The notes beneath the pieces were generated by a model. It did no database searches and had not been told where the DNA came from. It saw only the letters and a program-made list of their open reading frames with translations. The translations under genes were made by a program, and so were the position numbers. A stretch of DNA of 60,947 nt from a virus. Taxonomy: Duplodnaviria; Caudoviricetes. Below are positions 3,750 through 24,986 of the stretch, in pieces. The number at the start of each line of letters is the position of its first letter. Position 1 is the first letter of the stretch. The DNA lies in the IMG/VR virus record IMGVR_UViG_3300009703_000019, positions 1 through 60,947 of that record. One strand, 5' to 3'.

Positions 3750-3842
3750 ATGAACGGTAATAAGAATATTACCGTGGTTTGAACTAAAAATGCAAATAGC
3801 ACAATCAGTGTAAGGTCTACAAATATTTTAAAATATTTCATA

Positions 3843-4340
3843 TCATTCCTCTGTGTCTTCAAAATATTGCGAATAATGATTGTTAATTTTTGGATTAAAC
3901 CAATTATCATTTATTTTATGTTTAACATGACCACAATGCTTACATTTATTCGCATGGTGCTCTGGTAGTTTTGGTACTGGTGTTGGTATCTTGGTAATAG
4001 GATCCACACCTACCATAAGGAATTGTGCGGTGACACATTTTATTTGAGCGGAAGTTTTAACATCCTCTTTAACTCCTACTACATCAACTACCATTGACGT
4101 TCTTCCGACCTTTGTAATTTCCCCCCTCACCGATAATAGGCATCCTATATCAATGGGTTCTAGAAATTGTACATCCATAATCTTAGCTGTAATACAGTAT
4201 AACCTACTGAATCTTCGGCTTGTGACCGAAGCAGTTTGATCTAATACTTTAAGTAATTCGCCCCCATGAAATTTATTATCAAAATTCGATTGTTCTGGAC
4301 TTGGTGAAATAACAATAGTTGTTGATATTGGATTATCCAT
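3843..4340 (-). CDS. Acyl-CoA thioesterase, hotdog fold (YciA-like)
   Basis: N..NKFHGGELLKVLDQTA and FLEPIDIG...VGRTSMVV hotdog motifs. Confidence 0.85.
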   Translation of the reverse strand: MDNPISTTIVISPSPEQSNFDNKFHGGELLKVLDQTASVTSRRFSRLYCITAKIMDVQFLEPIDIGCLLSVRGEITKVGRTSMVVDVVGVKEDVKTSAQIKCVTAQFLMVGVDPITKIPTPVPKLPEHHANKCKHCGHVKHKINDNWFNPKINNHYSQYFEDTEE

Positions 4341-4351
4341 ATTCTCCCCGT

Positions 4352-6163
4352 TTAGTGGTCGTACCCTTGTGGTTCTCTAATAACATCTCTTCTTTCTAAT
4401 AAATCGTCGAGTTGATATTTGTCAATCGTTTCATATTTCATGAGACATTCGGTCATAGAATGTAAGATGTCTTCATTATCTTCGAGTATTTTCTTAGCCT
4501 TATCATAATTTTTGGTTGTTAATTTAATAACTTCCTCGTCTAGAAGTTTAGATATTTCTGGTGAAACTGTTTGAGCGGGTTGGCCCATGCTCCTACCCAT
4601 GAACGGATCACCTTGTTCATCTTCATAGCAAAGTGGACCTACTGCGTCACATAATCCCCATCGTTTGACCATATTTCTAGCAATAGATGTTGCTCTCTCA
4701 ATATCATTAGATGCACCAGTTGTAACTTTATCTTTACCGTAAACTAATTCTTCTGCAATCCGACCCCCATATAACGATTGAAGTTGTGATTCTAATTTTT
4801 CTTTTGATGCGGAATAAGAATCCTTTTCTGGTAGGAACATAGTAACCCCAAGAGCTCCACCTCTCGGCATAATAGATACCTTATAAACTGGATCATGAGT
4901 TTCGGTTAATCTACCTACAATGGCATGACCAGCCTCATGATATGCTGTCATTCTCTTCTCGTCCTCACCCATTATCATGGTTTTCTTTTCTACCCCCATA
5001 ATGAGTTTATCTTTTGCCCTTTCGAGGTCTGCCATGCAGATGTTTTCTTTATTTTCTTTTGCGGCAAAAAGAGCGGCCTCATTAATGAGATTTGCAAGTT
5101 CAGCACCACTGAATCCAGTAGTACCCTGTGCAATATATTCAAGTTTAATATCCGCGGATATTGGCACCCTTCGCATATGCACTTGAAGTATTTGCCCTCT
5201 GCCCTTGACATCAGGAAGTCCAACATTAATTTCTCTGTCAAATCTTCCGGGTCTTAATAATGCTTTATCTAGAACATCTGCTCTATTGGTTGCACCGAGT
5301 ACAATGATTCCATCTGAATCATCGAACCCATCCATTTCAACTAATAATTGGTTTAGGGTTTGTTCTCTCTCATCATTACCTCCACCGTGACCTGCCCCAC
5401 GCTGTCTTCCTACTGCATCAATTTCGTCTATGAATATGATACATGGACTGGATTTTCTTGCTTCAGAGAACATATCCCGAACTCTAGATGCACCAACACC
5501 AACAAACATTTCTACAAAATCTGAACCACTTATTGAAAAGAACGGAACATCTGCTTCACCGGCAATAGCACGAGCAAGTAAAGTTTTACCTGTGCCTGGT
5601 GGACCAACCATCAATGCACCCTTCGGTATTTTTGCACCGAGTCTTACATATTTTGGTGGGTTTCTAAGAAAATCTACCATCTCAGAAACCTCATCAAGAG
5701 CTTCTTCTACACCTGCGACATCAGAGAAAGTAACTTTCTCCTTTGACTGTTCTAGTTTTTTAGCTTTGTTCTTTCCTACAAATTTACCAGCACCACCGCC
5801 ACCTTGTCGCTTCATCCACCATATCCACACCCCTATTAATAACAATATAGGAAACCACGAAATGAATATGCTGAGAAAAAGAGAACCTTCCTTTGGTGGA
5901 TTTGCAATGACATCTACACCATTCTGGAGGAGATCATCTACCATGTGGGGATCATTGGGAGCATATGTTATAAATTTTCCACCGTCATAATATTCACCAA
6001 CAACGGTTTGATCATCTACTACAACTTTTTTTACCACCTTATCATTGACTAAATCTATAAATTTAGCATATGATACTTCCGATCCTATCTGCCCCCCTTT
6101 AGAATTCCCGAGGAAAGAGATAATAACTAATCCCATAATTAACCAAATTATTAGTCTTTTCAT
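4352..6163 (-). CDS. ftsH: ATP-dependent zinc metalloprotease FtsH
   Basis: Two TM segments, [46 protein letters not shown]. Confidence 0.97.
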
Positions 6164-6173
6164 AAATTGAATC

Positions 6174-8564
6174 CTATAATTCTAATATTTCTGATTCTAC
6201 GGAATGAACAACGTTGTTCATTGTCAAAATAGAATCGTAATTAAGTGATAGCGAATCAATCTCATGATTAACCAACCACGATGTTATTTCCGGGAAATCC
6301 GATGGTGCTTGCCCACAGATCCCAATATATTTACCATGTCTTTTGCATGATGTTATTGCCATTTCCATTAATTTGAGCACTGCTCCATTCCTCTCGTCAC
6401 ATCCGTTAATATTAGACGAATCTCTATCAACCCCAAGGGTTAATTGGGTTAAGTCATTAGATCCTATAGAAAATCCATCACAGTATTCTAAGAATTCATC
6501 CGCCAATAATGCATTACTTGGAACTTCGCACATGAATATAATTTTAATACCATGTTGACCAGATTTTATTCCATTTTCTTCTAATAATTGTATTACATTT
6601 TTTGCTTCATTTACAGTTCTAATAAAAGGAACCATAACTTGTATATTATTTAATCCATATTCTAGAATAACTTTTCTTATTGCAGAGCATTCCAACTCAA
6701 ATGCAAGTTTAAATTCTGGGGAATTATATCTATATGCACCCCTAAATCCGAGCATAGGATTTTCTTCCTCTGGTTCATAGAGATCACCACCATAGAGGTG
6801 AGCATATTCATTAGTTTTAAAATCGGATAATCTGAATATAACTGGTTTGGGATATACCGAAGCCGCAATGGTAGCAATACCATCTGCCAGTCTACTTCTA
6901 TAAAATTCTGTTGGTCGTGAATACCCAACAGTTTTTTCCGTTATGTGATCGTGCATCTCCTCAGATAATAGTGCATGATCGAGTATTGCGTTTGGGTGTA
7001 TACCTATACGGGAATTGATTATAAATTCAAGTCTTGCAAGTCCAACACCATCATTAGGATACTTAGCTATTTTAAATGCCATATCTGGATTACCAAGATT
7101 TAGCATCAATTTTGTTTTTGTTTTCTTGTATGAAGAAAAGTCTATTTTCTCTGTGGTGTATAGTAGGAGTCCATCGTAAACATATCCTATTTCACCTTCT
7201 GCACAAGATATTGTTATCTCCTCGTCATTTCCTATAACTGAGGTAGCATCATCACATCCAACCACGGCAGGTATACCAAGTTCTCTTGCTATAATTGCTG
7301 CGTGGCAAGTCCTACCTCCTCGATTGGTAATAATACCAGAGGATTTTTTCATTATTGGTTCCCAATCAGGATCGGTTATATCAGTTACGAGTATATCCCC
7401 CTCATTGAATTGATTCATATCACTGATATCATTAATGATAGATGATTTCCCCGAACCAATTTTAGATCCAATGGGTTTACCTGTAGTAATTACGGAGGAT
7501 GTTCGTTCTAATTTAAACACCTCATCAGAGCAAGGAGAATCCGCAGAATGAACCGTTTCTGGTCTAGATTGAACTATAAAGATTTCATTGGTAATACCAT
7601 CAATCGCCCACTCTATGTCCATGTGGGTCTTTTTACCATATTTCTTAGAATAATGGTCTTCAATAATTACTGCAGATTTAGCTAATGATATAACTTCCTC
7701 ATCACTTAAACAAAATTCTTGCTGCATGGATTTATCAACTTCAATATTATTCGTCCTATTAGACTCAGAATAAATCATTTTGACTAATTTGGCACCAAGC
7801 TGTCTTTGTATAATAGATTTATATCCATCCTTGAGAGTTGGTTTGAATACATAAAATTCATCTGGATTGACATTACCAGATACCACATTCTCACCAAGTC
7901 CGTATGCACCGGTGATAAATACCACATCATCAAATCCTGATTCTGTATCGAGGGTAAACATAACACCCGCGGTACCTCTATCAGATCGAACCATTTTCTG
8001 AATACCAATTGAAACTTTTACATCCCTGTGAGAATATCCATTACATATTCTATATGATATAATCCTGTCTGTAAATAATGAAGCGAATACGAGTTTACAT
8101 GCATGTATAACATCAACCGCACCAAATACATTTAGATATGTATCTAACTGACCGGCAAATGAATTTGATAATGAATCTTCTGTAGTTGCAGAAGATCTGA
8201 TAGCAACAGACCCACCAAGTTCATGATACGCTTGAAGTATCTCGAATTCTAATCGTGGTGGCATCTCTCCATTAATAAACCATGACCTAATAGTTTTACC
8301 TATTTCTGATAATGAGTCAATATCATCAATATCAACGTTCTTTAATATATCTTCAATTTTATGTTCGAGTTGATTGTGTTCAATAAAATCAGTATAACCA
8401 TCTACCTTTATGGCGAATCCATTCGGTACATTAATACCAGATTCGGTGAGTTCGGAATACATTTCACCGAGAGAAGCATTTTTACCACCAACTATAGAGA
8501 CATCTGATATACTTAATTCAGAATATTCTCGAATATAAGATAAATCACGATCAAATGCATGCAT
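6174..8564 (-). CDS. ppsA: Phosphoenolpyruvate synthase (pyruvate, water dikinase)
   Basis: VGGKNASLGEM, RSSAT.ED, GGRTCHAAIIARELG phospho-His, GVGLARLEF, FSIGSNDLTQ, GICGQ. Confidence 0.97.
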   Translation of the reverse strand: MHAFDRDLSYIREYSELSISDVSIVGGKNASLGEMYSELTESGINVPNGFAIKVDGYTDFIEHNQLEHKIEDILKNVDIDDIDSLSEIGKTIRSWFINGEMPPRLEFEILQAYHELGGSVAIRSSATTEDSLSNSFAGQLDTYLNVFGAVDVIHACKLVFASLFTDRIISYRICNGYSHRDVKVSIGIQKMVRSDRGTAGVMFTLDTESGFDDVVFITGAYGLGENVVSGNVNPDEFYVFKPTLKDGYKSIIQRQLGAKLVKMIYSESNRTNNIEVDKSMQQEFCLSDEEVISLAKSAVIIEDHYSKKYGKKTHMDIEWAIDGITNEIFIVQSRPETVHSADSPCSDEVFKLERTSSVITTGKPIGSKIGSGKSSIINDISDMNQFNEGDILVTDITDPDWEPIMKKSSGIITNRGGRTCHAAIIARELGIPAVVGCDDATSVIGNDEEITISCAEGEIGYVYDGLLLYTTEKIDFSSYKKTKTKLMLNLGNPDMAFKIAKYPNDGVGLARLEFIINSRIGIHPNAILDHALLSEEMHDHITEKTVGYSRPTEFYRSRLADGIATIAASVYPKPVIFRLSDFKTNEYAHLYGGDLYEPEEENPMLGFRGAYRYNSPEFKLAFELECSAIRKVILEYGLNNIQVMVPFIRTVNEAKNVIQLLEENGIKSGQHGIKIIFMCEVPSNALLADEFLEYCDGFSIGSNDLTQLTLGVDRDSSNINGCDERNGAVLKLMEMAITSCKRHGKYIGICGQAPSDFPEITSWLVNHEIDSLSLNYDSILTMNNVVHSVESEILEL

Positions 8565-8579
8565 TATATTCTCCGATTA

Positions 8580-9038
8580 TTACATACGAATTTCGAAATG
8601 TGGTGCGTCAATGAAAGGTCTTCGACCCTGATTTCTACGAAGATCTATATATGATGTCATTAGAGATTCCATTGGAGCGTTCCATGCTCTGATATCATTG
8701 AGGTGCCATGCTGCACCCCATCTAAGTGGTATACCAACTTCAATTGCAGATTCTTTCATAGCCTCTGCAATATCATCATAGACCTTTAGTTCCCAAGAAA
8801 CCTGTGACCCAATATAAGCTACAAGATCAACCGCTTTCCCAGTAAGGTGATTCGATTTCATAGTTTTTGATGCACCCTTATTGAAAAGTTCTTCTTGCCT
8901 AGCAAGAGACCGAACTCCCTCAGATACACCAAAATCAATTTTAGTTAATGTGATAGCTCTATGAACACACGATACCAGTTGTTCATCAACACCCTCCAAT
9001 CTACCTAAACTTCTTGATGATAATCTAAAATTTGACAT
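8580..9038 (-). CDS. Endolysin, peptidase M15 family (L-Ala-D-Glu-type)
   Basis: EGVRS..RQ, SNHLTGKAVD, RWG..W, DAPHFE zinc motifs. Confidence 0.85.
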   Translation of the reverse strand: MSNFRLSSRSLGRLEGVDEQLVSCVHRAITLTKIDFGVSEGVRSLARQEELFNKGASKTMKSNHLTGKAVDLVAYIGSQVSWELKVYDDIAEAMKESAIEVGIPLRWGAAWHLNDIRAWNAPMESLMTSYIDLRRNQGRRPFIDAPHFEIRM

Positions 9039-9047
9039 ATTATTCCT

Positions 9048-10325
9048 CTAAAATTGTTCCTCTTCGGTCGAGCCATCCATAGCAGTAGTAGATGATTTTC
9101 CACCTTGTATAGTATTGGTAATTAAATCAAAATATCCAGCACCAACTTCCTCTTGATGTCTTGCAAATGTATATCCATCTTTAAGAGATGCGAATTCTGG
9201 TTCTTGAACTCCCTCAACATAAGCAGTCATACCCCTCTCAACATAATCCTTCGATAACTCAAACATAGAATGCCACATATCATGAATACCAGCAAGGGTA
9301 ATGAATTGCCATTTAAATCCCATCTCACCTAGGCGTTTCTGATAATGTGCTATGGTTTCATCATCTAAATTCTTTTTCCAATTGAATGATGGTGAACAGT
9401 TGTAAGCCAGCAACTTGCCAGGATATTGTTGATGTATCGCAGTCGCAAATTTCTGTGCTTCTTCGAGATTAGGTACTGCAGTTTCACACCAGAGCATATC
9501 AGCATACTGTGCATATGCAAGTCCTCTGGAAATGGCCTGATCGATTCCAGATTTAACCCTATAGAATCCTTCCTCTGTACGTTCCCCTGTAACAAATTCC
9601 TTATCACGAACATCTATATTAGAGGTCAGTAGAGTTGCGGCATTAGCATCGGTTCTAGCTACGATAATAGTTGGTACACCCATAACATCGGATGCTAATC
9701 TTGCGGATACGAGTTTTTGAATTGCTTCCTGAGTTGGAACCAGTACCTTACCGCCCATGTGACCACATTTTTTGGCAGAGGATAATTGATCTTCAAGATG
9801 TATACCAGACACACCATTCTCGATCATTGATTTGGTCAGTTCATATGAATTAAGAACTCCACCAAACCCAGCCTCGGCATCAGCAATAATAGGAGCAAAA
9901 TAATCTACTTCCCTCGATCCCTTTGCCCATTGAATTTCATCTGCTCGGCGAAACGTATTATTAATACGCTTAACCATTTGTGGCACTGAATTATATGCAT
10001 AGAGCGATTGATCTGGATACATAGTTTCGCTGGAATTGCCATCCGCTGCTACTTGCCATCCCGATAAATATATAACTTTAATTCCAGCCTTGACCTGTTG
10101 CATTGCCTGACCGGCAGTTATAGCTCCCATAGAATTAACATATCCATCTTCGTTAATTAAATCCCAAAGTTTTTTAGATCCCAGAGAAGCCATAGTGTAT
10201 TCTTCATCCATCGAACCTCTTAATCGAATAACATCTTCGGCCGAATAAGGTCTGGAGATACCATTCCATCGTTCATTCTCTCTCCAATCCTCTTCTAAAG
10301 TTCTCACTCTGCCCAAATTTTCCAT
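9048..10325 (-). CDS. aceA: Isocitrate lyase
   Basis: KKCGHMGGK catalytic motif, [27 protein letters not shown]-terminal STEEEQF; start moved to 10325 (GAGG RBS); ORF track start is 10430. Confidence 0.97.
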
Positions 10326-10472
10326 ATATATTTTTGACCTCGTAATTGTAATTAATTTGCTAAATTTAGTATTAACCATACTCCAACGCATATGATTAAT
10401 GGTATTGTCATTGTCAATATAGACATCCAAACTGACTTAGTAACAGATTTACATAACCCATTACATTGATAA

Positions 10473-10670
10473 TTAATCTTTTCCAGTATTATTTCTACCC
10501 CAGACTGTACTATTTCGTTCACTTTCTTTCTTCTCCGTTTTTTGTTTATTATTAAATATAATATCCCAATTATCTCTAAATTTTTTATTTGTTATTTTTG
10601 ACTGAAGCTTATCCCCAGTTATATCATTCTTTGCCGTCATGCCCTTCTCGTTTATAGTTCCATCGTGCAT
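10473..10670 (-). CDS. Hypothetical protein
   Basis: 65 aa; KNDITGDKLQSK...FRDNWDIIF looks like a conserved small myophage protein. Confidence 0.5.
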   Translation of the reverse strand: MHDGTINEKGMTAKNDITGDKLQSKITNKKFRDNWDIIFNNKQKTEKKESERNSTVWGRNNTGKD

Positions 10671-10700
10671 ATGTCTTTCCAGATCTCATAATTATATATG

Positions 10701-10898
10701 TCACCTACAAAATTCATTTAATATTGTAGCATTTCCTTCGATAACCTCAACAGTATTATCTTGAATGAAGGTGTATTTCTCCTCCATTTTATAACCGCAT
10801 TTCTTGTAATCACTCCAAGAAATGCACTCTATTTTACCGGAGAGTTTACCATCCCCATTCATTAAAGGAACTGATATCATTCCAGATTCAGTGATCAT
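10701..10898 (-). CDS. Hypothetical protein
   Basis: 65 aa; ATGA overlap. Confidence 0.5.
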   Translation of the reverse strand: MITESGMISVPLMNGDGKLSGKIECISWSDYKKCGYKMEEKYTFIQDNTVEVIEGNATILNEFCR

Positions 10899-11137
10899 AT
10901 TTCCTCGACCTTTCTTTTCAATTTATCACGCTTTCGTTTAAGATCTTTAATCTCCCGTTTTAATTCTTTCTTTTCATCTAAATATCTGTTTACATCACTT
11001 ATATCACCGCACTTAGCCTCCATACGATTACCGATACTCTGTAATTCCTCTAGTAATCCCATAACAATTGAAAAGTTTCGTGTTTTATAACAAGCTCGCA
11101 TTTCATCTATCACGGTACAAAAATATCTATTTGTCAT
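10895..11137 (-). CDS. Hypothetical coiled-coil protein
   Basis: 80 aa; strong AGGAGG RBS. Confidence 0.6.
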   Translation of the reverse strand: MTNRYFCTVIDEMRACYKTRNFSIVMGLLEELQSIGNRMEAKCGDISDVNRYLDEKKELKREIKDLKRKRDKLKRKVEEI

Positions 11138-11155
11138 GTAAATCCTCCTTTGTAA

Positions 11156-13297
11156 TTAGGCTACCAATCTAGCAAACTCTTGAGCAATTAATTTGTTCAT
11201 TTTCTTATTCTTTTGAAATTTCTTGAAATCCCGTTTAATTGTTGTAAGTCTTTTTTTATCAATAACATCACCCTTTGCTTCAGTTGAAAATTCTTCCTCC
11301 TCTGCATTGAGTCTCTTATCATGAACTACGATATAGTGATCATAACCAGCATTGTTGCTTGAGACCGAATAACCGCTTTTATCAACATCAATTCTTTTTG
11401 AAGTTAAGAAGAATCCAATCAAATTATATTTCTGACGAATTCTTTCGAATATTTTATTATTAATGATCTTCGGCATGTGACCATAAAGATCAGGATAAGG
11501 AATTTCTATATTGGGATGACCCTCAACAGAAACGATAAAGGTTTTAGTTTTAGTTGATCCAAAAAATCTAGAAGTATTATCGGGAGAAGTAACTCTCACA
11601 TCCTGTGCATCACCATCGGTTAAAAAGATAACATTCAATTTATCAACTCTATTTCTTTTGAGGAAATCGTCAATCATAAGAAGAGAAACTGCCGAGGTTT
11701 CAACAAGTGGTGTACCTCCGAGTTTAAATGCAGGCTCTATAGCCCATCTATGTCGGGACCATTTATTATCATTATGATCATATGGTTTATGACGAGCAGA
11801 AGTAATAACAGATGAAAACATAACTCTCTCAAACATTTTATTTAATTTGGGGGTTGACCATTTAGAGTCTCCGATCTTAACCAAATTAACTGCCCAATTG
11901 TGAGTATCATATTTAGATTTATTATCTTCTCCTCTCCAGGATCTATATTTTTCACTGTTAGTTGTAAAAGAATATAATTCAAAAGGAATATTAATTCTTT
12001 TAGCAAACATGGATAATATGATCGATTGTTTAACAGTTTCGTGGAGTCTGATAGACATTGAGGCTGAAAAATCAATGTACATAATGAGACCGTGATTCTT
12101 AGAATCTGGCATATTTAGAACAGTTTTAAAAATCCGATCGTCTAATTTATATTTCCAGAGTTTATTAACGTCAATTGAACCTGAAGTGGATTCTTTGATT
12201 TTTCTAGATTCCATTGCAGATTTACGAAGTTCGAATTGTTGAACCATCGCATTAACTGCTGGTTTAATATCCGAAATAAATTCTTTATATTCTGAGGAAT
12301 ATTCATTTCGAAGTCTTGTATATTCTTCGGAAAAATCTTTCATAACATATTCTAGAGATTTTTCAAAATCCTTCTCTGAATATAACCATTCTTCCTTTAA
12401 TTGTTTTTTAGTAAATTTAATTTGGGTTATTACAGAGTCGGAATGTGTTAATTTACTTTCATTGTTTCTAAAATTTTGATCGGTAACAGAATCATAGAGA
12501 TTGTTATCTCCAGTGAGAGCTTCATCTTCCGTTTCATAGTCACCGGGTGGGATATCATCATCTCTCTGCTGAACCATTTGGGTTTCTTCAGAATCTTTCC
12601 CTTCTTCGCTTTCTTCTGAATCCCCATCCTCTGAACCAGAATCTTCTTCACTTTCTTCTGAATCTCCATCCTCTGAATCGTAATCTTCTCCTTCTTCATT
12701 TTCAGATTCTGAATCCTCTGAGTATTCCTCTTTCTTAGATTCCTCATTTTCTTTTGAAATGAAGTCCATTAACTCTCGAGAAATTGAAATAGTATCATCA
12801 AAAGTTTGAATTTCAAAAACCTTTGACATCATAACAGATTCAGCGAAAGAGAATTCAAGATCAATTGAATTATTTAATTTAGCTTTAAGATTAAGTCTAT
12901 CAAGGAAACTGAGTTTATTTGGATCGACATCTTTAATTCCAAAGAAGTTATCCGCCATAAGACGTTTGTAACCTTTAACGAAATCATTAATTAATCCCGG
13001 ATAAAATTCTCGAATCATTCGTTCAATACGAACATCTTCGACAATATTCAAAATAGAATGAGGAATATCAACAATTTTGGGAAATGCCTCTCCATCGTGA
13101 GAGAAAATGTCAGGGGTATAAAGAGCGTGACCAACTTCGTGCCCAATAAAGAGCGGATAAGCGTCGGAATATTCTTCCTTCAATATAGGTAATCTAAGTA
13201 TTCGGTTCGCTGGATCAAAGGAGGCAGTTTTGAAGTTTCCCTCAATTACCTCCAAATCCTCTCGAGCCATTAACTTAGAAAGTAACGATTTATTCAT
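11156..13297 (-). CDS. CobT-like protein: HExxH metallopeptidase-like domain, acidic linker, VWA domain
   Basis: HEVGH and NIVEDVRIE; D/E/S-rich linker; MIDAS DFSAS...GGTP...LTDGD. Confidence 0.8.
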   Translation of the reverse strand: MNKSLLSKLMAREDLEVIEGNFKTASFDPANRILRLPILKEEYSDAYPLFIGHEVGHALYTPDIFSHDGEAFPKIVDIPHSILNIVEDVRIERMIREFYPGLINDFVKGYKRLMADNFFGIKDVDPNKLSFLDRLNLKAKLNNSIDLEFSFAESVMMSKVFEIQTFDDTISISRELMDFISKENEESKKEEYSEDSESENEEGEDYDSEDGDSEESEEDSGSEDGDSEESEEGKDSEETQMVQQRDDDIPPGDYETEDEALTGDNNLYDSVTDQNFRNNESKLTHSDSVITQIKFTKKQLKEEWLYSEKDFEKSLEYVMKDFSEEYTRLRNEYSSEYKEFISDIKPAVNAMVQQFELRKSAMESRKIKESTSGSIDVNKLWKYKLDDRIFKTVLNMPDSKNHGLIMYIDFSASMSIRLHETVKQSIILSMFAKRINIPFELYSFTTNSEKYRSWRGEDNKSKYDTHNWAVNLVKIGDSKWSTPKLNKMFERVMFSSVITSARHKPYDHNDNKWSRHRWAIEPAFKLGGTPLVETSAVSLLMIDDFLKRNRVDKLNVIFLTDGDAQDVRVTSPDNTSRFFGSTKTKTFIVSVEGHPNIEIPYPDLYGHMPKIINNKIFERIRQKYNLIGFFLTSKRIDVDKSGYSVSSNNAGYDHYIVVHDKRLNAEEEEFSTEAKGDVIDKKRLTTIKRDFKKFQKNKKMNKLIAQEFARLVA
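12601..12680. repeat. Imperfect 39-bp tandem repeat encoding SEDGDSEESEE twice in the acidic linker
   Basis: cttcttc.ctttcttctgaatc.ccatcctctgaa occurs twice. Confidence 0.7.
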
Positions 13298-13331
13298 AAT
13301 ATATATACACCTTTTATCAATTTATACATAT

Positions 13332-13361
13332 ATTATATCAAATTTAACAGTGAATGTAAAC
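13332..13361 (-). promoter_or_regulatory. Early-type sigma70 promoter GTTTACA-N17-TATAAT with AT-rich UP element
   Basis: Counted 17-nt spacer; T4 early -35 GTTTAC; upstream of the VWA gene. Confidence 0.8.
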
Positions 13362-13378
13362 AATTATTTTCATTTATT

Positions 13379-13534
13379 TCACCTTTGATGCTGTATTTTT
13401 GTCATACCCACTAATTTAAACCATCTTAGACAATGCGGACATCTAATTTTAGATAGAGAATAAAACCTAACAAAAGACCCGGGTTTACCCTCATCACACG
13501 GACATTTAAAGTCTGTTATATCAACTTCTTTCAT
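13379..13534 (-). CDS. Small Zn-ribbon-like protein (51 aa, not in ORF track)
   Basis: Hand translation MKEVDITDFKCPCDEG...RCPHC...; Cys pairs. Confidence 0.5.
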   Translation of the reverse strand: MKEVDITDFKCPCDEGKPGSFVRFYSLSKIRCPHCLRWFKLVGMTKIQHQR

Positions 13535-13985
13535 TTCCAAGCGCTAATACCAGATAATGAATAGCCTTAAGGAGATCTTTTTTATTTTTACCACCCTTTT
13601 TACCATATCGCATGAGATATTTAATGGTAGTATCAATACAAGAATCGGTCATAGACCCGCGCGCCTTCCATACATCTAAGGTTTGAACCTCATTATTTTG
13701 GTTGGTGTAATGCTCAGAATATGTCGATTCAATATATTTTTTGATTTCTGTTAATGTTGACAGTTCCGAATAATTATACTTAAAGTTAGTATCAGATCCA
13801 TACATTCTTTTGTATTCCGAATCCTCTTTAAAATCTATTTCTGGATCTGGAAATTCGTTGAAATTTGGTGCACTATTCAACTCGAACCATTCTTCCCAAT
13901 CAGTTTGAGTTGCTTTCCAATTAATAGCATCACAATTAATTTTGGAAAATTTAGAATCCATCATAGTACTCCATTCCTCACCCAT
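13521..13985 (-). CDS. DUF3310-like protein (T7 gp1.7 nucleotide-kinase-like)
   Basis: YSEHY...IKYLMRYGKKGG...DLLKAIHY. Confidence 0.7.
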   Translation of the reverse strand: MGEEWSTMMDSKFSKINCDAINWKATQTDWEEWFELNSAPNFNEFPDPEIDFKEDSEYKRMYGSDTNFKYNYSELSTLTEIKKYIESTYSEHYTNQNNEVQTLDVWKARGSMTDSCIDTTIKYLMRYGKKGGKNKKDLLKAIHYLVLALGNERS

Positions 13986-14106
13986 TTAGCAGTGGGATGT
14001 CGTTTTTTAGTATAGGTTCCATGCCCAGTTTGTTTTGCTAGAGGTTTACCCCTAGCAGTTCTTTCATTACTTTTGAATGGTTTATATCGTTTACTCATAA
14101 TTCACC

Positions 14107-15072
14107 TCACTCTTCGTATTTGTTTGATCTAGAATTAATGATATTAATTGTTTCTAATATATTCTTTGCCATTTTCTCTGATGCAACATCTATCATTTTA
14201 CCGTCAAGAGATGCTGCACCTTGTCCTGCTTTAGATGCTTTGTATAATGCATCAAGTATTCTTTCTGCCGTGGTGACTTCTTCTTTTGATGGTGTGAATA
14301 CTTCATTTGCAAGTGGTATTTGTGACGGATGTATTGCCCATTTACCAGTACATCCGAGAGCTGCTGCACGCTTAGCTGCTAGTACATATCCCTCTTTATC
14401 CTTAATATCACCGTATGGACCATCTACGGGTCTGAGACCATACGCTCTACATGCAACCACCATTCTTGATAAAGCAGAATGCCATTGATCACCAGGATAA
14501 TTCTCATTGAGCCCACCGATATTGGTAGTTCTTGCTCGAGTAGATGCAGCATAATCGGCAACTCCAAAATGCATGGATTCTAATCTAGAATTAACACTCT
14601 TCCTTGCAATTTCATCAACATTAGACATACCAAGAGCAGTTTCTATTAGGCATTCTAATCGAACAGATCCCTTTTTGAGATTGTGTTTTATTTCAAGAGT
14701 ATTAATGATACATTCAACCATGTATATATCATCAAATACACCTACCTTTGGTATTAATATAGTATCTAATTTTTCTCCGCAATGTTCAACCAACTGTATT
14801 ACATCATCAAGCCAATAACCAGTTTCAAGTCCGTTGATACGAACACATATAGTTTTATTTGCGCCTTTCCAATCTAGATTATTAATTCCAGCAATCACAT
14901 TAGCTCGTGCCTGTATCTTATCTGGTGTTGCAACAGAATCTTCCAAATCTAGGAATACAAAATCTGCATCGGAATTTAATGCTTTCTCAAACATTTTTGG
15001 ACTAGATCCCGGAACTGTTAAATCACATCTCTGAAGTCTTGATATTGCGGGTTCGTATACTGTATAACTCAT
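14107..15072 (-). CDS. mcl: Malyl-CoA lyase (CitE/HpcH-HpaI family)
   Basis: LDLEDSVA, VRINGL, LIETALGM, FGVADYAASTRART, ACRAYGLRPVDGPYGD, GKWAIHPSQI; follows recalled MclA sequences along its length. Confidence 0.88.
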   Translation of the reverse strand: MSYTVYEPAISRLQRCDLTVPGSSPKMFEKALNSDADFVFLDLEDSVATPDKIQARANVIAGINNLDWKGANKTICVRINGLETGYWLDDVIQLVEHCGEKLDTILIPKVGVFDDIYMVECIINTLEIKHNLKKGSVRLECLIETALGMSNVDEIARKSVNSRLESMHFGVADYAASTRARTTNIGGLNENYPGDQWHSALSRMVVACRAYGLRPVDGPYGDIKDKEGYVLAAKRAAALGCTGKWAIHPSQIPLANEVFTPSKEEVTTAERILDALYKASKAGQGAASLDGKMIDVASEKMAKNILETINIINSRSNKYEE

Positions 15073-15344
15073 AATTTTCCTTATTCAATTATATTAATAA
15101 TGATATGTATTAGTTCTATAACTCCAAGAGATAATATGTATATTATCATTCCTGAAGCTATTAATACTGTTATAATATCCCTCATTGATCCGGTTTTTTC
15201 TGGACAGGGAATTGTGCATCCTTCCATCTCAATTTAGCCCAAGTTCTATAGGTATCATCCTCGGGATCAACATTTTTGTCATACGTCTTATAAAATTTTA
15301 TAAGCAATGTTCTATTTGATCTTTCCCATTTATCAAAATTCATT

Positions 15345-16292
15345 TCAAGACACCAATGCCTTCAATGATTCCCCATTATAAAATCTTCTTATTGTTTCAG
15401 ATAATAAATCTTCAATACTAATAACTTTAATTTTGAGGGGGAGATCTTTTACTTGCTCAATGGAATCAGATATATATACCTTCCCTAGATTAGAATCCTC
15501 AATTCGTTGTATTGCCTTTCCAGAAAATACACCATGAATGGATATAGCATCCACCGATTTCGATCCAGATTTTTCTAATGCCTCTACAGCACCAATTAAT
15601 GTTCCACCCCCATCAATCATATCATCCACTATGACACATTTTTTATCGGTAACATTCCCAATAACATTCATAACTTTAGATTCGCCAGGCTCTGGTCTTC
15701 TCTTATCAATAATAGCTATAGGAAGATTTAATAAATTGGAAAAATATCGAGCCCTAGAAGTACCACCCACATCTGATGAGACTACAACATCCCAATAAGA
15801 AGGAACAATCGCGGCAACGATAGAATCCCTCATAGTTTTCAGTCCAGATATATGTTCACATACTACATTGTTATTAAAAAATCCCTGTGTCTGGAGTGAA
15901 TGAAGATCCATACAAATGACAGAATTTATACCAGTATGACAAAGCATATTAGCAATCACTTTACCCGATATTGGAGAGCGATTGGTTCTTCTATCCTGGC
16001 GAGCGTAAGGATAGTAAGGAAATATGACATTTATTTTGGAGGGGTTTGATCGACGAACAGCATCAATGATTAACATAAGTTCAAGTATGTCATTATTTTT
16101 ATTTGAGTCTTTAGAAAACCCCGCGATGAGGAAAATTTCTTCCCTTCGTATATTTTCTTTTATTTCAACGTATATTTCGGAATCGGGGAAATCCCGAACA
16201 TACATTTTTGCTAGTCTTACATTAAGTTTCTCTGCTACCTTTTCTGCTAGGATTCTATTCGATCTTGTAGAAACCAATTTAAAGTTTTGCAT
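15345..16292 (-). CDS. prs: Ribose-phosphate pyrophosphokinase (PRPP synthetase)
   Basis: FPDSE, PYYPYARQDR, DLHS.Q.QGFF, IDKRR, VIVDDMIDGGGT. Confidence 0.95.
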   Translation of the reverse strand: MQNFKLVSTRSNRILAEKVAEKLNVRLAKMYVRDFPDSEIYVEIKENIRREEIFLIAGFSKDSNKNNDILELMLIIDAVRRSNPSKINVIFPYYPYARQDRRTNRSPISGKVIANMLCHTGINSVICMDLHSLQTQGFFNNNVVCEHISGLKTMRDSIVAAIVPSYWDVVVSSDVGGTSRARYFSNLLNLPIAIIDKRRPEPGESKVMNVIGNVTDKKCVIVDDMIDGGGTLIGAVEALEKSGSKSVDAISIHGVFSGKAIQRIEDSNLGKVYISDSIEQVKDLPLKIKVISIEDLLSETIRRFYNGESLKALVS

Positions 16293-16321
16293 ATAGTCTC
16301 ACCTGTCATATCAATAATTAC

Positions 16322-16351
16322 ATTATACTACATTTCCTCAGTGTTGTAAAC
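16322..16351 (-). promoter_or_regulatory. Early-type promoter GTTTACA-N17-TATAAT for prs/mcl
   Basis: Counted 17-nt spacer. Confidence 0.8.
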
Positions 16352-17103
16352 TATTCTTGGGAATTAAATTTCTCGCAGAGTTTATGATATTTAACAGACG
16401 AATGATCCCAGAATGAATCAATCTCGAAGTTTTTAAGTCCTACCAGCATACCAATAACATATTGTTTAAACATGTACCATCTACTGAAACCGTGTACATG
16501 ATTACCCTTTCTATCAAAATAATTTAGGTGACCAATATGAGTATACCCAATGAATTCGGGTGGCTGGCGAGTTACAATATCATTGTTATTTCTAAATCGA
16601 TAGAATTTGGGTCTAAACGCTTCACGAAATTCTGAATTACCTACTCTCGGTGATCCGTATGTATATCCAACTACATTTTCGTCACCGAGTCTTCCAGCTG
16701 CAATGGTTGCTAGGGCAGCACCAAGGGAATGACCAGTGAGGAAAATATTTTTCTTGGAGACAGAATTCTTTTCAAAATGATCAAGAAAATCATCCCAAAT
16801 TAAATCAAGACCATCTTTAAATCCCCGGTGAACTCTACCAGAAGAATCTTCAGAAGCCTCTGTTTTACGAAATCTGATATCAGTTTTAATATCAGATAAT
16901 TTTTTTGGTTCGGTGCCTCGAAATGCATAAATTAAATCGTTGTCATCCCATAGGGCATAGCATTGTGTAGATCCAGAATTAAAAAACTTAATGTCAAAAT
17001 GCTCAGAATATATATCAGAAAATTCCATAACTTCAAGATAAGCATTCATCGACAATTCAGAAAAGAATTCTGCGTTCGCTTTAGAAAACCCTGAATCTAA
17101 CAT
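16351..17103 (-). CDS. Lipase, class 3 family
   Basis: AFRGT, VHRGF, LTGHSLGAALA nucleophile elbow, YTYGSPRVGN, DIVT..P, C-terminal DH. Confidence 0.9.
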   Translation of the reverse strand: MLDSGFSKANAEFFSELSMNAYLEVMEFSDIYSEHFDIKFFNSGSTQCYALWDDNDLIYAFRGTEPKKLSDIKTDIRFRKTEASEDSSGRVHRGFKDGLDLIWDDFLDHFEKNSVSKKNIFLTGHSLGAALATIAAGRLGDENVVGYTYGSPRVGNSEFREAFRPKFYRFRNNNDIVTRQPPEFIGYTHIGHLNYFDRKGNHVHGFSRWYMFKQYVIGMLVGLKNFEIDSFWDHSSVKYHKLCEKFNSQE

Positions 17104-17104
17104 A

Positions 17105-17296
17105 TCATTCTCCGCAGGTTACTTTAATAGAATGCGGGGCAAGAGATTCATTTAGACCCCTTCTAAGTGCATTTCTACCAGCTTCAGGAACAGAACAATA
17201 TTTGTTCACTGCATGAGATGCCGTCAACTTAATTGTATCTATTGTAGAACATCCCGATATAAACATAATCGAACACATTATTATTACTTTTTTCAT
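17105..17296 (-). CDS. Small lipoprotein
   Basis: Signal peptide with lipobox ISGC. Confidence 0.65.
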   Translation of the reverse strand: MKKVIIMCSIMFISGCSTIDTIKLTASHAVNKYCSVPEAGRNALRRGLNESLAPHSIKVTCGE

Positions 17297-17705: not shown

Positions 17706-17930
17706 AAATCGATCCGTTCTGTTGCCAAGTGGATCAGACTCCGCGTTTTAACCTAGAGGCTAAGCAGCAAGTGCAAAATTATCTTCTGCGTTTATATTTT
17801 TGATTTTTACATCTTTCTTGATGGGCGGTCAATATATCGTTAACACATTGTCGAAACTGTTCTCTCCCATTGGTGGAAGAGGCGGGAATCGCACCCGCGT
17901 CCAACATATCTCAAATATACATCATACTGC
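17706..17930 (-). ncRNA. ssrA: tmRNA, circularly permuted (two-piece); tag (A)AEDNFALAA
   Basis: Minus strand reads GGAC-GCGGG TGCGATT CCCGC-CTCTTCC-ACCA-AT-GGGAGAG-AACAGTTTCGAC, a perfect acceptor stem with G3.U70; tag ORF 17789-17760; downstream TCTG/CAGA + GATCC/GGATC pseudoknot; outer ends approximate. Confidence 0.9.
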
Positions 17931-17934
17931 CATA

Positions 17935-21758: not shown

Positions 21759-23684
21759 TTAAGTTTTTTCCTCTGAATAATGGAGTGGTCCACCCCGAAA
21801 TGGAGCAAATCCTGTACCAAAAATAATACCAGCATCTACAAGATCTGCAGACTCAACAATGCCTTCGCTCAAGCATTTTTCACACTCAGCGATAATTGTT
21901 CCAACTAATCTAGATGTTATTTCTGGTTTTGGATTTCCGTGAGTCTTCTCTACATAGACATCATGTATATAAAACCCAACCCCTGATTTAATACCAAGAT
22001 TTCCATTCTCAACCAACCTCTCAAGCCTCTCTGGTATTTTAAGTCCTAGTTCCCCACAAATTGTATCCATGACAAAATAACAGACATCAAGTCCTACCGT
22101 ATCAGCCAGTTTCAATGGTCCTATAGGCATACCAAAATCTGTGAATGAAGCATCAATTTCTTCTTTAAGATATCCCTCATCAAGCATATTAATAGCTTCA
22201 ATGAGTGTAGGCATCAACACCCTATTAACGAGGAAACCCGGAGAAGATTTAACCTTCAATGGAAGTTTATCAATATGTCTGCAAAATGCCAAGGATTTTT
22301 CTATAACATCTGTCGAAGTAATGGGAGAATATATAACTTCAATTAGCGGCATCTTCGCAACTGGATTGAAAAAATGAATACCAACCAACCTCTCTGGATT
22401 TTGCATCTCAGCAGATAATACTTCTAATTTAATAGATGATGTGTTGGTTGCAAGTATTGCCGTGCTTTTCATTTCCTTTTCGAGTTTAGAATATAGATCC
22501 CTCTTGATATCTACATTTTCAATAATTGCTTCAATAACTATATCTGCAGATGGTATGCCAAACCCCTTTGAGTCTGGTATTAATCTGTCATATACTTCAT
22601 TGATTAGATGTTCTTGACCCGAAAATCTTTTTTTATAGAACTTATATGACCTAGCCATCCCCTTTGCTATGGTAGTCTCATCAATATCTTGAAGAGTTAC
22701 CTTATAACCAGATAGTGCTGCCCACATTGCGATATCAGAACCCATTGTTCCAGCACCAATAACATGAACGTGCTTGAGGTCGAGTTTTGATTTATCCCCC
22801 TCCCCTTTAAGCATATCCTGAAGCATGAACACACGAAGAAGATTCTTTGCGGTGGGAGTTACAGCTAATTTCGAAACACTTTCTGCCTCTGCTTTCATGA
22901 ACCTAAATTCATCGTACCCATATTTCTCCCATATATCAACTAATGCGTATGGTGCTGGGTAATGCTTTTCTTTAACTTTAGAATGGAGATTTCTTCGAAT
23001 CTTAGTGGATACCAATTTCCTACCAATAGACGAATGAAGTAGTGAATCGAGTTTATCTGATCTTCTCGGTGGAGGAGATTTTTTAATTATATCCACCGCC
23101 GATTTATCGAATAAGCGAAGAGGAACAACGTAATCAACGAGACCCATCTTTTTAGCTTGATATGCAGATAAAGTACGACCCGTCAGCATTATACCCATTG
23201 CCTTAATGACCCCAAGTACTCTAATGGATCTAACAGAACCACCAAATCCGGGATGTATTCCAAGCTTAACTTCTGGGAATCCGATTCTCGATTTTGTCGA
23301 GTCAAGAATGATTCTATAATCACAAGACAATGCAAGTTCAAGACCACCACCAAGACATACTCCATTAATCAGTGCGAGTGTGGGAAAGTCCATAGTATCA
23401 ATTAACCACATAACCTCTTGACCCTTGGTTATGGCTTTATGTGCATCTTCATATTCGTGGAATTTCTTAAATTCTTTAACATCAGCACCAGCAATAAATC
23501 CAGAAGATTTGGCAGAGGTAATTACCATACCCGCAGGTGAAATATTCCTAACTTCTAATAACACTTCTCTTAATTCATCTAATACCTCAGACGATAATAC
23601 ATTCATTGATCCATCAGCATAATCGAAATATACCCATGCGATTTGATTATTATCTAGTACTAATTTAAAATGTTTATAATCCAT
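21759..23684 (-). CDS. fadJ: Fatty acid oxidation complex alpha subunit (enoyl-CoA hydratase + 3-hydroxyacyl-CoA dehydrogenase)
   Basis: FIAGAD, CLGGGLELAL, FPEVKLGIHPGFGG; GAGTMG, TNTSS, HFFNP, PGFLVNR, GP..L.D.VGLD, GFAPFRGGP. Confidence 0.93.
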   Translation of the reverse strand: MDYKHFKLVLDNNQIAWVYFDYADGSMNVLSSEVLDELREVLLEVRNISPAGMVITSAKSSGFIAGADVKEFKKFHEYEDAHKAITKGQEVMWLIDTMDFPTLALINGVCLGGGLELALSCDYRIILDSTKSRIGFPEVKLGIHPGFGGSVRSIRVLGVIKAMGIMLTGRTLSAYQAKKMGLVDYVVPLRLFDKSAVDIIKKSPPPRRSDKLDSLLHSSIGRKLVSTKIRRNLHSKVKEKHYPAPYALVDIWEKYGYDEFRFMKAEAESVSKLAVTPTAKNLLRVFMLQDMLKGEGDKSKLDLKHVHVIGAGTMGSDIAMWAALSGYKVTLQDIDETTIAKGMARSYKFYKKRFSGQEHLINEVYDRLIPDSKGFGIPSADIVIEAIIENVDIKRDLYSKLEKEMKSTAILATNTSSIKLEVLSAEMQNPERLVGIHFFNPVAKMPLIEVIYSPITSTDVIEKSLAFCRHIDKLPLKVKSSPGFLVNRVLMPTLIEAINMLDEGYLKEEIDASFTDFGMPIGPLKLADTVGLDVCYFVMDTICGELGLKIPERLERLVENGNLGIKSGVGFYIHDVYVEKTHGNPKPEITSRLVGTIIAECEKCLSEGIVESADLVDAGIIFGTGFAPFRGGPLHYSEEKT

Positions 23685-23687: not shown

Positions 23688-24986
23688 TTATCTCTTTAAA
23701 TTTTCAATTAATATTGCACCACCTTGCCCATGTCCAATACATAGAGATGCAACCCCATATTGAGTGGAATTCGCCTCAAGTGTTTTGGCAAGGTGATATA
23801 CAATTCGTGTACCAGAAGCACCAACCGGATGACCTATAGAAATAGAACCCCCGTGCATGTTTAACTTGGTGGGATCAATCTCCCCGAATGCTTCTTCCAT
23901 TCCAAATTCCTCTGAGCAATAATCCTTCGATTCCATTGCCTTTAAGCACCCAATTACCTGTGCGGCAAATGCTTCATTTAATTCGAAAGAATCGATATCC
24001 CCGACACTAAGACCATTTCTCGTAACCATTGGAACTAACGATTTTACTGGACCAAGACCCATTTCAGAAGGATCTACTCCAGCCCAATTGATATCGACGA
24101 TTTTAGCAAGAACCTTATCCCGAAGTCCATACTTATCGAGTGCTGCATCACTTGCCAATAAAACAAATGAAGCACCATCAGTAATAGGTGCAGAATTACC
24201 TGCAGTCACATTACCAAATAATTTATCAAAAACTGGTCGGAGTTTCGCCAGTTTTTCAATGGAATTCTTGGATCGTACGCTTTCATCGGTATTATAAACC
24301 CCCCCAACCTTATCATATATATTGGTTATCTCGTTTTCAAGTATATCGATACTCTGCTCTGTGTTATATTTTTTATGAGAGTTCACAGCATATTCATCCA
24401 TATCAGTTCTTGTAATACCAAACCTCCATGCTAAATTCTCGGCCGTTTGACCCATACTTAAATTTATAGTTGGATCTTTTAATGCTCTGAGGAGAGAGAT
24501 TACTGGGACTAACAACTTCGGTCTAAATTGAAGCGCGACAAGTAATTTTTTAGGAAAGGATTTAGCCATGTTGAATTTAGATAACCACATTGCCATATCA
24601 TCATTAAATAATAATGGTGCGCGAGACATGGTTTCTGTTCCACCAGCAAGAACCAAATCAGATGTACCAGAGGCTATATTTTTATACGCAGAATCAATCG
24701 CTTGAAGACCTGATGCACAATTACGTTGAACCGTATGTGCTGGTATATTAACATTGAGTCCGAGTCTCAAGGCTAGGAGTTTAGCTATATTACACTCATC
24801 GGCATTGGGATTCATGCAACCAACAACCAATTCATCTATATCATTATCTCCAATTCCATTACGAATTAAGAGAGGACGAGCGGCCTGAATTGCAAGGTCA
24901 AGAGCTTTAAATTTACCCGGAGTTCCCTTTGCCTTTAAAAATGGCGTTCTTGAACCATCTACTATATACACATCATTATATTTCAT
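23688..24986 (-). CDS. fadI: 3-ketoacyl-CoA thiolase (acetyl-CoA C-acyltransferase)
   Basis: RTPF, NCASG, TAGNS.PITDGA, NEAFA, GHPVGASG, CIGHGQG; directly upstream of fadJ as in fadIJ. Confidence 0.93.
   Translation of the reverse strand: MKYNDVYIVDGSRTPFLKAKGTPGKFKALDLAIQAARPLLIRNGIGDNDIDELVVGCMNPNADECNIAKLLALRLGLNVNIPAHTVQRNCASGLQAIDSAYKNIASGTSDLVLAGGTETMSRAPLLFNDDMAMWLSKFNMAKSFPKKLLVALQFRPKLLVPVISLLRALKDPTINLSMGQTAENLAWRFGITRTDMDEYAVNSHKKYNTEQSIDILENEITNIYDKVGGVYNTDESVRSKNSIEKLAKLRPVFDKLFGNVTAGNSAPITDGASFVLLASDAALDKYGLRDKVLAKIVDINWAGVDPSEMGLGPVKSLVPMVTRNGLSVGDIDSFELNEAFAAQVIGCLKAMESKDYCSEEFGMEEAFGEIDPTKLNMHGGSISIGHPVGASGTRIVYHLAKTLEANSTQYGVASLCIGHGQGGAILIENLKR

Follow-up and report, generated by a model that had tools for sequence, protein, structure and literature searches.

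The window analysed here is the whole IMG/VR virus record IMGVR_UViG_3300009703_000019, 60,947 bases long and estimated to be about 32% complete, which by its gene content is a fragment of an uncultured T4-like phage. Within 6 kb it carries genes for an isocitrate lyase (ICL) and a malyl-CoA lyase (Mcl), and no malate synthase gene could be found in it. On an evenly balanced judgement, the phage carries a portable route of acetyl-CoA assimilation, in which Mcl would condense the glyoxylate made by ICL with acetyl-CoA from beta-oxidation, the malyl-CoA so formed being resolved by a thioesterase or by a malate thiokinase of the host. The two genes on which this proposal is built are the following:

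9048..10325, minus strand: isocitrate lyase AceA, 425 aa; NF011645 score of 752 bits against a cut-off of 562, covering residues 40-460 of the long open reading frame (ORF); Pfam ICL E-value 1.8e-113
14107..15072, minus strand: L-malyl-CoA/beta-methylmalyl-CoA lyase of the MclA/Mcl1 type, 321 aa; recognised by PF03328, PDB entries 5ugr/4l9y and its catalytic residues

The ICL ORF is open over 9048-10430 on the minus strand and reads 460 aa from a TTG at 10430. Because homologues of 425-433 aa cover 92% of the 460-aa ORF and a typical N-terminus is found at the ATG at 10325, this ATG was taken as the most likely start, and the TTG is probably unused. An earlier note on this DNA had named an aceA in the window, which was borne out by the NF011645 equivalog score given above. 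The protein was full length and contained the stretch AKKCGHMG, in which KKCGH is the active-site loop motif of ICL.

Domain analysis of the lyase revealed a TIM barrel with a C-terminal lid: PF03328 (HpcH_HpaI) matched residues 19-249 with 127 bits (E 8.8e-37), and PF15617 (C-C_Bond_Lyase) matched residues 238-306. The best solved relatives were the Methylorubrum extorquens enzyme 5ugr (346 bits, E 1.7e-102) and the Rhodobacter sphaeroides enzyme 4l9y (287 bits, E 1.5e-84), far above CLYBL (110 bits), the RipC-like 3qll (101 bits), CitE chains (at most 81 bits) and 3oyx (47 bits), and the RipC, citE and haloarchaeal Mcl models all stayed under their cut-offs. In the HMMER alignment, D42, E44, D45, R78, E144, D173 and D295 of the phage protein matched Asp42, Glu44, Asp45, Arg76, Glu141, Asp168 and Asp299 of R. 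sphaeroides, the seven catalytic and metal residues of Rhodobacter Mcl listed in the excerpted text of Zarzycki and Kerfeld (PMC3832036). All seven were among the 131 positions common to the phage and at least 95% of 80 cellular Mcl sequences; another 12 cell-conserved positions differed in the phage clade, mostly by conservative changes. The lid residue of the phage enzyme, Asp295, is as in lyases, a Glu being described for the malyl-CoA thioesterase clade in the same excerpts, where the Mcl reaction is given as reversible and Mcl itself as lacking malyl-CoA hydrolysis (PMC3832036). By sequence criteria, the phage enzyme is thus a true MclA-type malyl-CoA lyase and not a citryl- or citramalyl-CoA enzyme; the MclA-like lyase of the earlier note held, and the citryl- or citramalyl-CoA specificity against which it had warned was not seen.

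The pairing of the two enzymes recurred in related phage contigs. Scanning IMG/VR with Mcl returned five further contigs (G001-G005), four of which also carried ICL; the remaining one, G003, ends about 16 kb short of the position that ICL occupies in the near-identical G005. Both genes were present in all five contigs long enough to hold them (the window, G001, G002, G004 and G005), in three gene orders. In the window-type order, Mcl lies 4 kb upstream of ICL, the phosphoenolpyruvate (PEP) synthase PpsA and the protease FtsH. ICL and Mcl adjoin in G004 (28-nt spacer) and in three metagenome contigs, L211, L213 and L215; the acyl-CoA dehydrogenase FadE comes next in three of these four (G004, L211 and L213). 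In G005 and G002, ICL is flanked by nrdA and a DUF6267 gene, and Mcl lies 56 kb away. The proximity of aceA and the lyase, to which the earlier note had drawn attention, could therefore be followed to a pair conserved in five of five testable contigs and directly adjacent on four, and these patterns indicate that the pairing is more than chance.

Strong purifying selection was also evident. Between phage lineages dS reached 0.7-1.4, and dN/dS was 0.06-0.09 for ICL and 0.08-0.10 for Mcl; values of 0.06-0.10 at a dS as large as 0.8-1.4 indicate that both genes are kept by selection in phage genomes. Comparison of the window with G005, the longest relative (115 kb, 64% complete), demonstrated a bimodal conservation: metabolic and nucleotide genes were 76-90% identical at the protein level (ICL 90%, Mcl 89%, PpsA 86%, FtsH 89%), and replication genes (gp43, gp44, gp45, gp41, UvsX, primase, RNase H) 29-57% (gp43 44%). 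This suggests a module swap, or the exchange of a metabolic island between divergent T4-like lineages. NrdA, ThyX, FadA/B and Prs also belonged to the 76-90% group. A metagenome scan for a complete genome returned no phage-type contig longer than 115 kb.

A PF01274 (malate synthase) search over the whole window gave only a sub-threshold echo on Mcl itself (16.3 bits against a cut-off of 26.4), and none of the five related phage contigs held a malate synthase. Since the record is about 32% complete, this absence holds for the window and the fragments of its relatives and not for the whole genome. The canonical glyoxylate shunt of AceA with AceB/GlcB was accordingly not found in the DNA searched, in agreement with the earlier note, which had seen no aceB or glcB. 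That note had also proposed looking beyond the locus for malate synthase or malate thiokinase; neither was present on the window or the related contigs, which cover the genome in part. No second CitE-like gene was detected either, as one PF03328 match per contig was obtained in five of five relatives and the sole CitE-like ORF of the window is Mcl.

ICL relatives occurred on 79 IMG/VR loci, 50 of which were chosen for a whole-record search that covered 49 records, all but that of L085; the loci left out were mostly short contigs and four loci duplicating G001, G002, G004 and G005. Malate synthase (PF01274) and HpcH-family genes were found in none of the 49 other records, all but two of which are fragments, and the same search recovered Mcl in five of five positive controls. 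Ten of them belong to the ICL clade of the window itself but are fragments that stop short of mcl. The other 39 (G016-G054, loci L044-L107) carry an ICL 54-63% identical, again with neither gene; among them are a record of 337 kb bearing terminal repeats and one of 320 kb with an estimated completeness of 93%. On this survey a lone ICL is the usual state in phages and Mcl is an addition specific to the window's clade, a distinct event whose product was afterwards kept. An ICL homologue, 53% identical and annotated as a hypothetical protein, was also observed at 11992-13233 of the complete 156-kb genome of Phage C48C1 (Kyanoviridae; OQ984149.1, locus L033).

Cellular mcl genes were examined by scanning one genome per species with the Mcl alignment; of the loci matched, at least 596 in number, the 80 best were taken. 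At 75 of these 80 loci, mcl was followed directly and on the same strand by two mtkA/mtkB-like genes resembling the pair on L192 (L192:10001-12991), whose Pfam domains are those of succinyl-CoA-synthetase-type beta and alpha subunits; in three of the five exceptions the contig breaks off no more than 500 nt beyond mcl. The arrangement, which is that of Methylococcus capsulatus MCA1739-1741 in the excerpted text of PMC517821, was also found at 60 of 65 metagenome loci, all five exceptions being cut within 340 nt. Among phages, mtk-like genes were found on none of six contigs, at none of 15 phage-type metagenome loci and at none of 79 ICL-bearing viral loci. As judged from these counts, the phage lineage took mcl without its near-universal cellular partner, the thiokinase. 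Aminotran_5 and SHMT were each found in none of five phage contigs, and therefore no other serine-cycle gene travels with Mcl; an icl+ serine cycle encoded by the phage itself was not seen, and supply of the missing steps by the host is possible.

Among 30 mcl-bearing genomes outside the Pelagibacterales, ICL was present in 12 and malate synthase in eight. Eight of the 30 combine ICL with mcl-mtkAB and have no detectable malate synthase, three of them being single-chromosome assemblies. These eight uncultured gammaproteobacterial genomes (G071, G072, G074, G075, G076, G078, G079 and G090; loci L120, L122, L126, L128, L130, L144, L145 and L169) may provide a natural parallel in cells to the proposed bypass. 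Separately, mcl was observed in 13 Pelagibacterales genomes (loci L132-L192), with mtkA/mtkB-like genes next to it in 12 and L164 cut 51 nt after mcl. Malate synthase was found in 12 of the 13 and ICL in 11 (59-61% identical, full length in ten and split in two pieces in one); malate synthase, ICL and Mcl thus coexist in these genomes as three glyoxylate-handling enzymes.

The phage nature of the window, already stated in the earlier note, was supported by T4-type gp43 DNA polymerase, gp44 clamp loader, gp45 clamp, gp41 helicase and UvsX, together with gp59, primase and RNase H; PhoH, ThyX and NrdA/NrdB were also found. Of 88 ORFs (at least 60 aa, overlaps removed), 83 lie on the minus strand, and the G+C content is 31-40%. 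The gp43 protein is at most 46% identical to that of any deposited phage, the nearest being cyanophages and single-cell-derived marine viruses. A DNA search of the 6-kb region against deposited phages gave no match, and the Mcl protein gave only distant CitE-like matches there, of at most 32% identity. Near-identical contigs were present in a run labelled subsurface metagenome, and relatives 90-95% alike in runs labelled marine, runs with small shares being left out of this habitat reading. Two RNA-seq runs of a single marine sample (X19, X20) also held contigs 90-95% alike, which matched Mcl, ICL, the thioesterase, FtsH and Prs in part; compared without a silent control stretch and open to DNA carry-over, they are weak evidence of transcription. 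Promoter-like sites in 3400-17200 numbered 52 where 61.7 were expected, and terminator-like sites 3 where 6.3 were expected, so that the scan carried no operon information.

The further genes considered in the proposed route, and one marker gene beside them, are listed below:

3843..4340, minus strand: hotdog (4HBT) acyl-CoA thioesterase, 165 aa; PF03061 E-value 3.5e-13
4352..6163, minus strand: FtsH protease, with Pfam Peptidase_M41, AAA and FtsH_ext; outside the pathway, used as a marker of gene origin
6174..8564, minus strand: phosphoenolpyruvate synthase PpsA (pyruvate to PEP, the gluconeogenic exit); NF005057 1104 bits against a cut-off of 598
15345..16292, minus strand: ribose-phosphate diphosphokinase Prs (phosphoribosyl pyrophosphate, PRPP, for nucleotides); NF002320 335.8 bits against a cut-off of 297
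16351..17103, minus strand: class-3 lipase; PF01764 E-value 1.8e-24
21759..23684, minus strand: FadB/FadJ-type enoyl-CoA hydratase / 3-hydroxyacyl-CoA dehydrogenase; Pfam 3HCDH_N, ECH_1 and 3HCDH
23688..24986, minus strand: thiolase (acetyl-CoA C-acyltransferase); Pfam Thiolase_N/C, NF006030 603.7 bits against a cut-off of 593
31197..33395, minus strand: long FadE-type acyl-CoA dehydrogenase; Pfam ACDH_C and related domains, NF007000 911.9 bits against a cut-off of 600, phrog_15032

The core of beta-oxidation is complete in the window with FadE, thiolase and FadB/J (the FadJ and FadB models gave 500 and 452 bits on 21759-23684, under their equivalog cut-offs), and Prs and the class-3 lipase lie directly upstream of Mcl. 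The enzymes that the earlier note had named were all present; its gene set had left out the beta-oxidation genes, the lipase, Prs and the cellular coupling of mcl to thiokinase. In the route proposed here, the lipase with FadE, FadB and the thiolase would yield acetyl-CoA, presumably from host lipid, and ICL would split isocitrate into succinate and glyoxylate. Mcl, for which we infer the condensing direction, would then join glyoxylate and acetyl-CoA into malyl-CoA, replacing malate synthase. Conversion of malyl-CoA to malate could occur by hydrolysis, for which the phage hotdog thioesterase is the candidate, or alternatively by a host malate thiokinase running in reverse, whereby the thioester would be conserved as ATP. 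Malate would pass to oxaloacetate through a malate dehydrogenase, encoded on a relative, and from there to PEP via PpsA and to PRPP via Prs for phage DNA. Given the adjacency of ICL, Mcl and FadE, both substrates of Mcl would come from products of the neighbours of mcl. Condensation was ranked first because the sources of glyoxylate and acetyl-CoA are phage-encoded, Aminotran_5 and SHMT are missing, and PpsA, Prs and malate dehydrogenase are present, while cleavage would need malyl-CoA from a host thiokinase.

The malate dehydrogenase was found near PpsA in G005, where it scored as a true member (418 bits against a cut-off of 271), and near PpsA in L204 and L217 too. G005 additionally encodes alanine dehydrogenase, dihydroorotate dehydrogenase (DHODH), a PurN-like formyltransferase, a TPP decarboxylase-like protein, DnaK and DnaJ. 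Further host-like genes were observed in G005, namely an acyltransferase/alpha-beta-hydrolase fusion, GST, a Mom-like protein and several DNA methyltransferases, and its host-like stretches lie at L017:12768-13745, L018:11939-13652, L019:2694-3860, L019:7333-9063, L019:15161-18103 and L020:9062-13053.

The candidate thioesterase is the last gene of a tight co-directional string of ICL, an endolysin-like gene, PpsA, FtsH and thioesterase, with spacers of 9-15 nt. An acyl-CoA thioesterase downstream in the aceA-ppsA-ftsH run, as the earlier note had described, was therefore confirmed as a 4HBT hotdog protein. Its PDB relatives are 2gvh, ACOT7 and a Neisseria acyl-CoA hydrolase, and more distantly YciA HI0827 (E 1.3e-6). 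The gene stands directly after ftsH at seven of seven viral loci with upstream sequence and beside mcl at none, so that the note's suggestion of a YciA-like enzyme acting on malyl-CoA was left without genomic support. A fourth gene order, seen at the IMG/VR loci L199 and L200, has FtsH and the thioesterase followed about 2 kb on by fadA-fadB; on this arrangement, a link of the thioesterase to beta-oxidation is no less well founded than one to the bypass. The enzyme could equally be a beta-oxidation helper, and it stands here as an unproven candidate for malyl-CoA hydrolysis. Twelve relatives of it were found; of these, the ones with more than 58% identity come from metagenome and viral contigs (three are in NCBI records as well), and none could be shown to be cellular.

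Several points weigh against the condensing bypass. The direction of Mcl is not readable from its sequence, and the known role of this Mcl clade, together with thiokinase, is cleavage in the serine cycle, according to the excerpted texts of PMC3832036 and PMC517821. The route is weakest where malyl-CoA has to be turned into malate, the resolving enzyme being a candidate only: the thioesterase is linked to ftsH and, at two loci, to fadA-fadB and not to mcl, and among the relatives searched it had no characterised close relative. With the record 32% and the longest relative 64% complete, a malate synthase could lie in the unseen DNA. The occurrence of ICL alone in 49 other viral records also means that a phage ICL needs no phage-encoded partner. 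A host with its own malate synthase, as in most of the mcl-bearing Pelagibacterales (12 of 13), would make Mcl redundant for this purpose. Finally, a search of the phage contigs for acyl-CoA synthetase (PF00501) found none, and the lipid route is therefore incomplete on the phage.

Evidence on the host was mixed: the sequence does not single one out, and gene affinity appears gamma- or betaproteobacterial, nearest to the Methylococcaceae. The phage ICL was 74-76% identical to uncultured gammaproteobacterial proteins, and the phage Mcl clade, on a long stem of 1.18 changes per column, fell within a set holding Nitrosomonadaceae and Methylococcaceae (SH-aLRT 99). For FtsH, identity was 64-65% with four Methylococcaceae genomes, compared with 53-54% in Pelagibacterales, and in an even draw of 300 gammaproteobacterial genomes (three flagged unpublished) none surpassed the match at 65%. 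DnaK of G005 was 70-71% identical to the same four Methylococcaceae genomes against 59-63% for Alphaproteobacteria. Homologues of FadE and of the phosphate porin were present in gamma- and betaproteobacterial genomes of the host panel and in none of six Pelagibacterales; the panel consisted of mcl-carrying genomes only and is hence biased. A permuted tmRNA of the two-piece type, with tag peptide AEDNFALAA, was located at 17707-17975 on the minus strand (Rfam tmRNA_permuted 106 bits, alpha_tmRNA 72 bits); BLAST against 41 genomes gave matches of 22-40 nt only. PF04896 (pmoC/amoC) matched none of the five relatives, and the control likewise gave no match.

An origin as a pelagimyophage, which the low G+C content and the alpha-type permuted tmRNA had suggested, was rejected, since Pelagibacterales proteins were more distant than the gammaproteobacterial ones (ICL 59-61%, FtsH 53-54%, DnaK 59-62%) and no FadE or porin homologue was found there. 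The pelagimyophage paper PMC7029224 makes no mention of tmRNA, isocitrate, glyoxylate, fatty acid, FtsH or lyase. Other host-like genes observed in the window were a CbbQ/NorQ-type AAA_5 ATPase (56753-57952, minus strand), the partial phosphate-selective porin O/P (60206-60946, minus strand), 30-36% identical to gamma- and betaproteobacterial genomes only, and a small MscS-like channel fragment (2725-3237, minus strand).

The Methylococcaceae signal lends weight to another reading, which is possible although less probable. Both enzymes would make glyoxylate, ICL from isocitrate and Mcl by cleaving malyl-CoA supplied by a host thiokinase, in an icl+ serine cycle or regeneration loop feeding glycine, serine, C1 units and purines in a methylotroph-like or glycine-limited host. 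It is favoured by the nearest cellular Mcl clade and by the affinities of FtsH and of G005 DnaK, as well as by the nucleotide- and C1-linked genes of the relatives (PurN-like formyltransferase, DHODH, Prs, alanine dehydrogenase). None of the four Methylococcaceae and none of the four Nitrosomonadaceae in the panel held ICL or malate synthase. Should such bacteria, with mcl-mtkAB and without ICL, be the hosts, they would gain from the phage a bypass that they wholly lack, and the phage ICL would equally close a glyoxylate-regenerating icl+ serine cycle; because such hosts would fit both, the glyoxylate-making reading stays serious. Against it, the phage lacks Aminotran_5, SHMT and also the thiokinase genes, which in cells are almost constant companions of mcl; the conserved phage neighbours of Mcl are ICL and FadE, the makers of the condensation substrates, and such a host would already own an Mcl. 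Closure of a glyoxylate cycle is the better supported of the two options offered in the earlier note, though not decisively; the other, C1 assimilation in a methylotroph, stays alive through the Methylococcaceae signal.

A bolder form of the condensing bypass is unlikely as a whole, though conceivable. The phage would infect an obligate C1-user or chemolithoautotroph of the Methylococcaceae or Nitrosomonadaceae kind and install in it a full route from lipid to C4 compounds. Cells of this type are packed with internal membranes. These membranes of the host's own would be burnt to acetyl-CoA, ICL and Mcl would create a glyoxylate cycle new to the host, and the host thiokinase would be reversed, so that the malate-synthase step would yield ATP.

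That there is no dedicated pathway seems improbable. ICL and Mcl would then be independent auxiliary genes of a large host-like island, each topping up a host step, and their co-occurrence would reflect shared ancestry of the island. The 56 kb between the two genes in the G005/G002 order, the lone ICL of 49 other viral records and the many unrelated host-like genes of the island (FtsH, DnaK/J, GST, the MscS-like gene, porin) are as expected under this explanation, and the co-occurrence counts are not independent because all Mcl-bearing contigs are related phages. The pair nevertheless persists in three gene orders and is directly adjacent on four separate contigs; it has been retained between lineages that share only 43-44% identity in DNA polymerase, with strong purifying selection on both genes. 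Very unlikely is a main role of Mcl on a C5 substrate, in which glyoxylate and propionyl-CoA would give beta-methylmalyl-CoA to dispose of propionyl-CoA from odd-chain or branched lipids: the Mcl type is bifunctional for malyl-CoA and beta-methylmalyl-CoA (the name of 5ugr; excerpts of PMC3832036) and beta-oxidation genes are on the phage, but no Pfam- or NCBIfam-annotated ORF matched an enzyme carrying beta-methylmalyl-CoA onward, no family search for mesaconyl-CoA hydratase or CoA transferase having been made, and the sequence offers nothing favouring a C5 preference.

The condensing bypass resembles several known systems in part. The excerpted text of Nishimura et al. 2017 (PMC5332604) describes an aceBA operon in the 179-kb, T4-like marine viral genome TARA_ERS478052_N000008 and proposes a glyoxylate shunt in the infected cell, and virome reads for aceAB and fadB are reported in that of Hurwitz et al. 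(PMC4053976). Both TARA_ERS478052_N000008, a large phage whose structural genes are T4-like, and the present phage combine ICL with an enzyme that joins glyoxylate to acetyl-CoA; there this enzyme is AceB, in an operon with aceA, whereas here it is Mcl, with beta-oxidation genes alongside. Unlike AceB, Mcl releases malyl-CoA, and therefore a further step is needed.

Such a further step is found in the apparent malate synthase of R. sphaeroides, in which an Mcl1-type lyase (4l9y) condenses and a separate enzyme frees malate, as given in the excerpts of PMC3832036. The hydrolase there is a CitE-like paralogue (Mcl2) with a lid Glu, whereas the phage contigs carry one CitE-like gene, with Asp, and so no Mcl1 and Mcl2 pair; glyoxylate comes from the ethylmalonyl-CoA pathway in R. 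sphaeroides and from ICL in the phage. Of the earlier note's statement that Mcl with a thioesterase acts as malate synthase in Rhodobacter, the two-enzyme system stands, with a CitE-like paralogue and not a hotdog protein as the thioesterase (PMC3832036). Its parallel claim for Chloroflexus has to be given up, as the lyase works there in the 3-hydroxypropionate bi-cycle according to the same excerpts.

With the serine-cycle mcl-mtkA-mtkB operon of Methylorubrum extorquens and of M. capsulatus MCA1739-1741 (excerpts of PMC517821), the phage shares an Mcl of the same family, as its match to 5ugr shows. It differs in that the phage DNA seen holds no thiokinase, the phage enzymes form a long-stem clade, and the neighbours are ICL and FadE and not serine-cycle genes. 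The haloarchaeal CitE-type malate synthase 3oyx has the same fold and catalytic residues on a scaffold that, in the excerpted text of PMC3832036, is able both to condense and to hydrolyse. Its match to the phage enzyme is distant (E 1.8e-11; NF041315 66 bits against a cut-off of 780), and the phage sequence gives no sign of malyl-CoA hydrolysis.

A literature search, with the supplementary gene tables of PMC5332604 and PMC4053976 outside it, found no report of a malyl-CoA lyase in a virus. As far as the excerpts of these two papers go, phage glyoxylate-shunt genes have been known only as the canonical aceBA of one marine viral genome and as aceAB at the level of reads. What is new here is a proposed phage bypass module with a non-canonical second enzyme, a lyase apparently taken without its thiokinase and set beside ICL and FadE. 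The ICL and Mcl genes would form a compact, naturally selected pair for metabolic engineers, readily testable with two or three recombinant enzymes. If the proposal is true, the phage would be a natural experiment in which Mcl replaces malate synthase in vivo, and phages would bring a whole carbon route from lipid to nucleotide (lipase, beta-oxidation, bypass, PpsA and Prs) into their host, which would bear on the carbon flow of infected cells in marine and subsurface waters.

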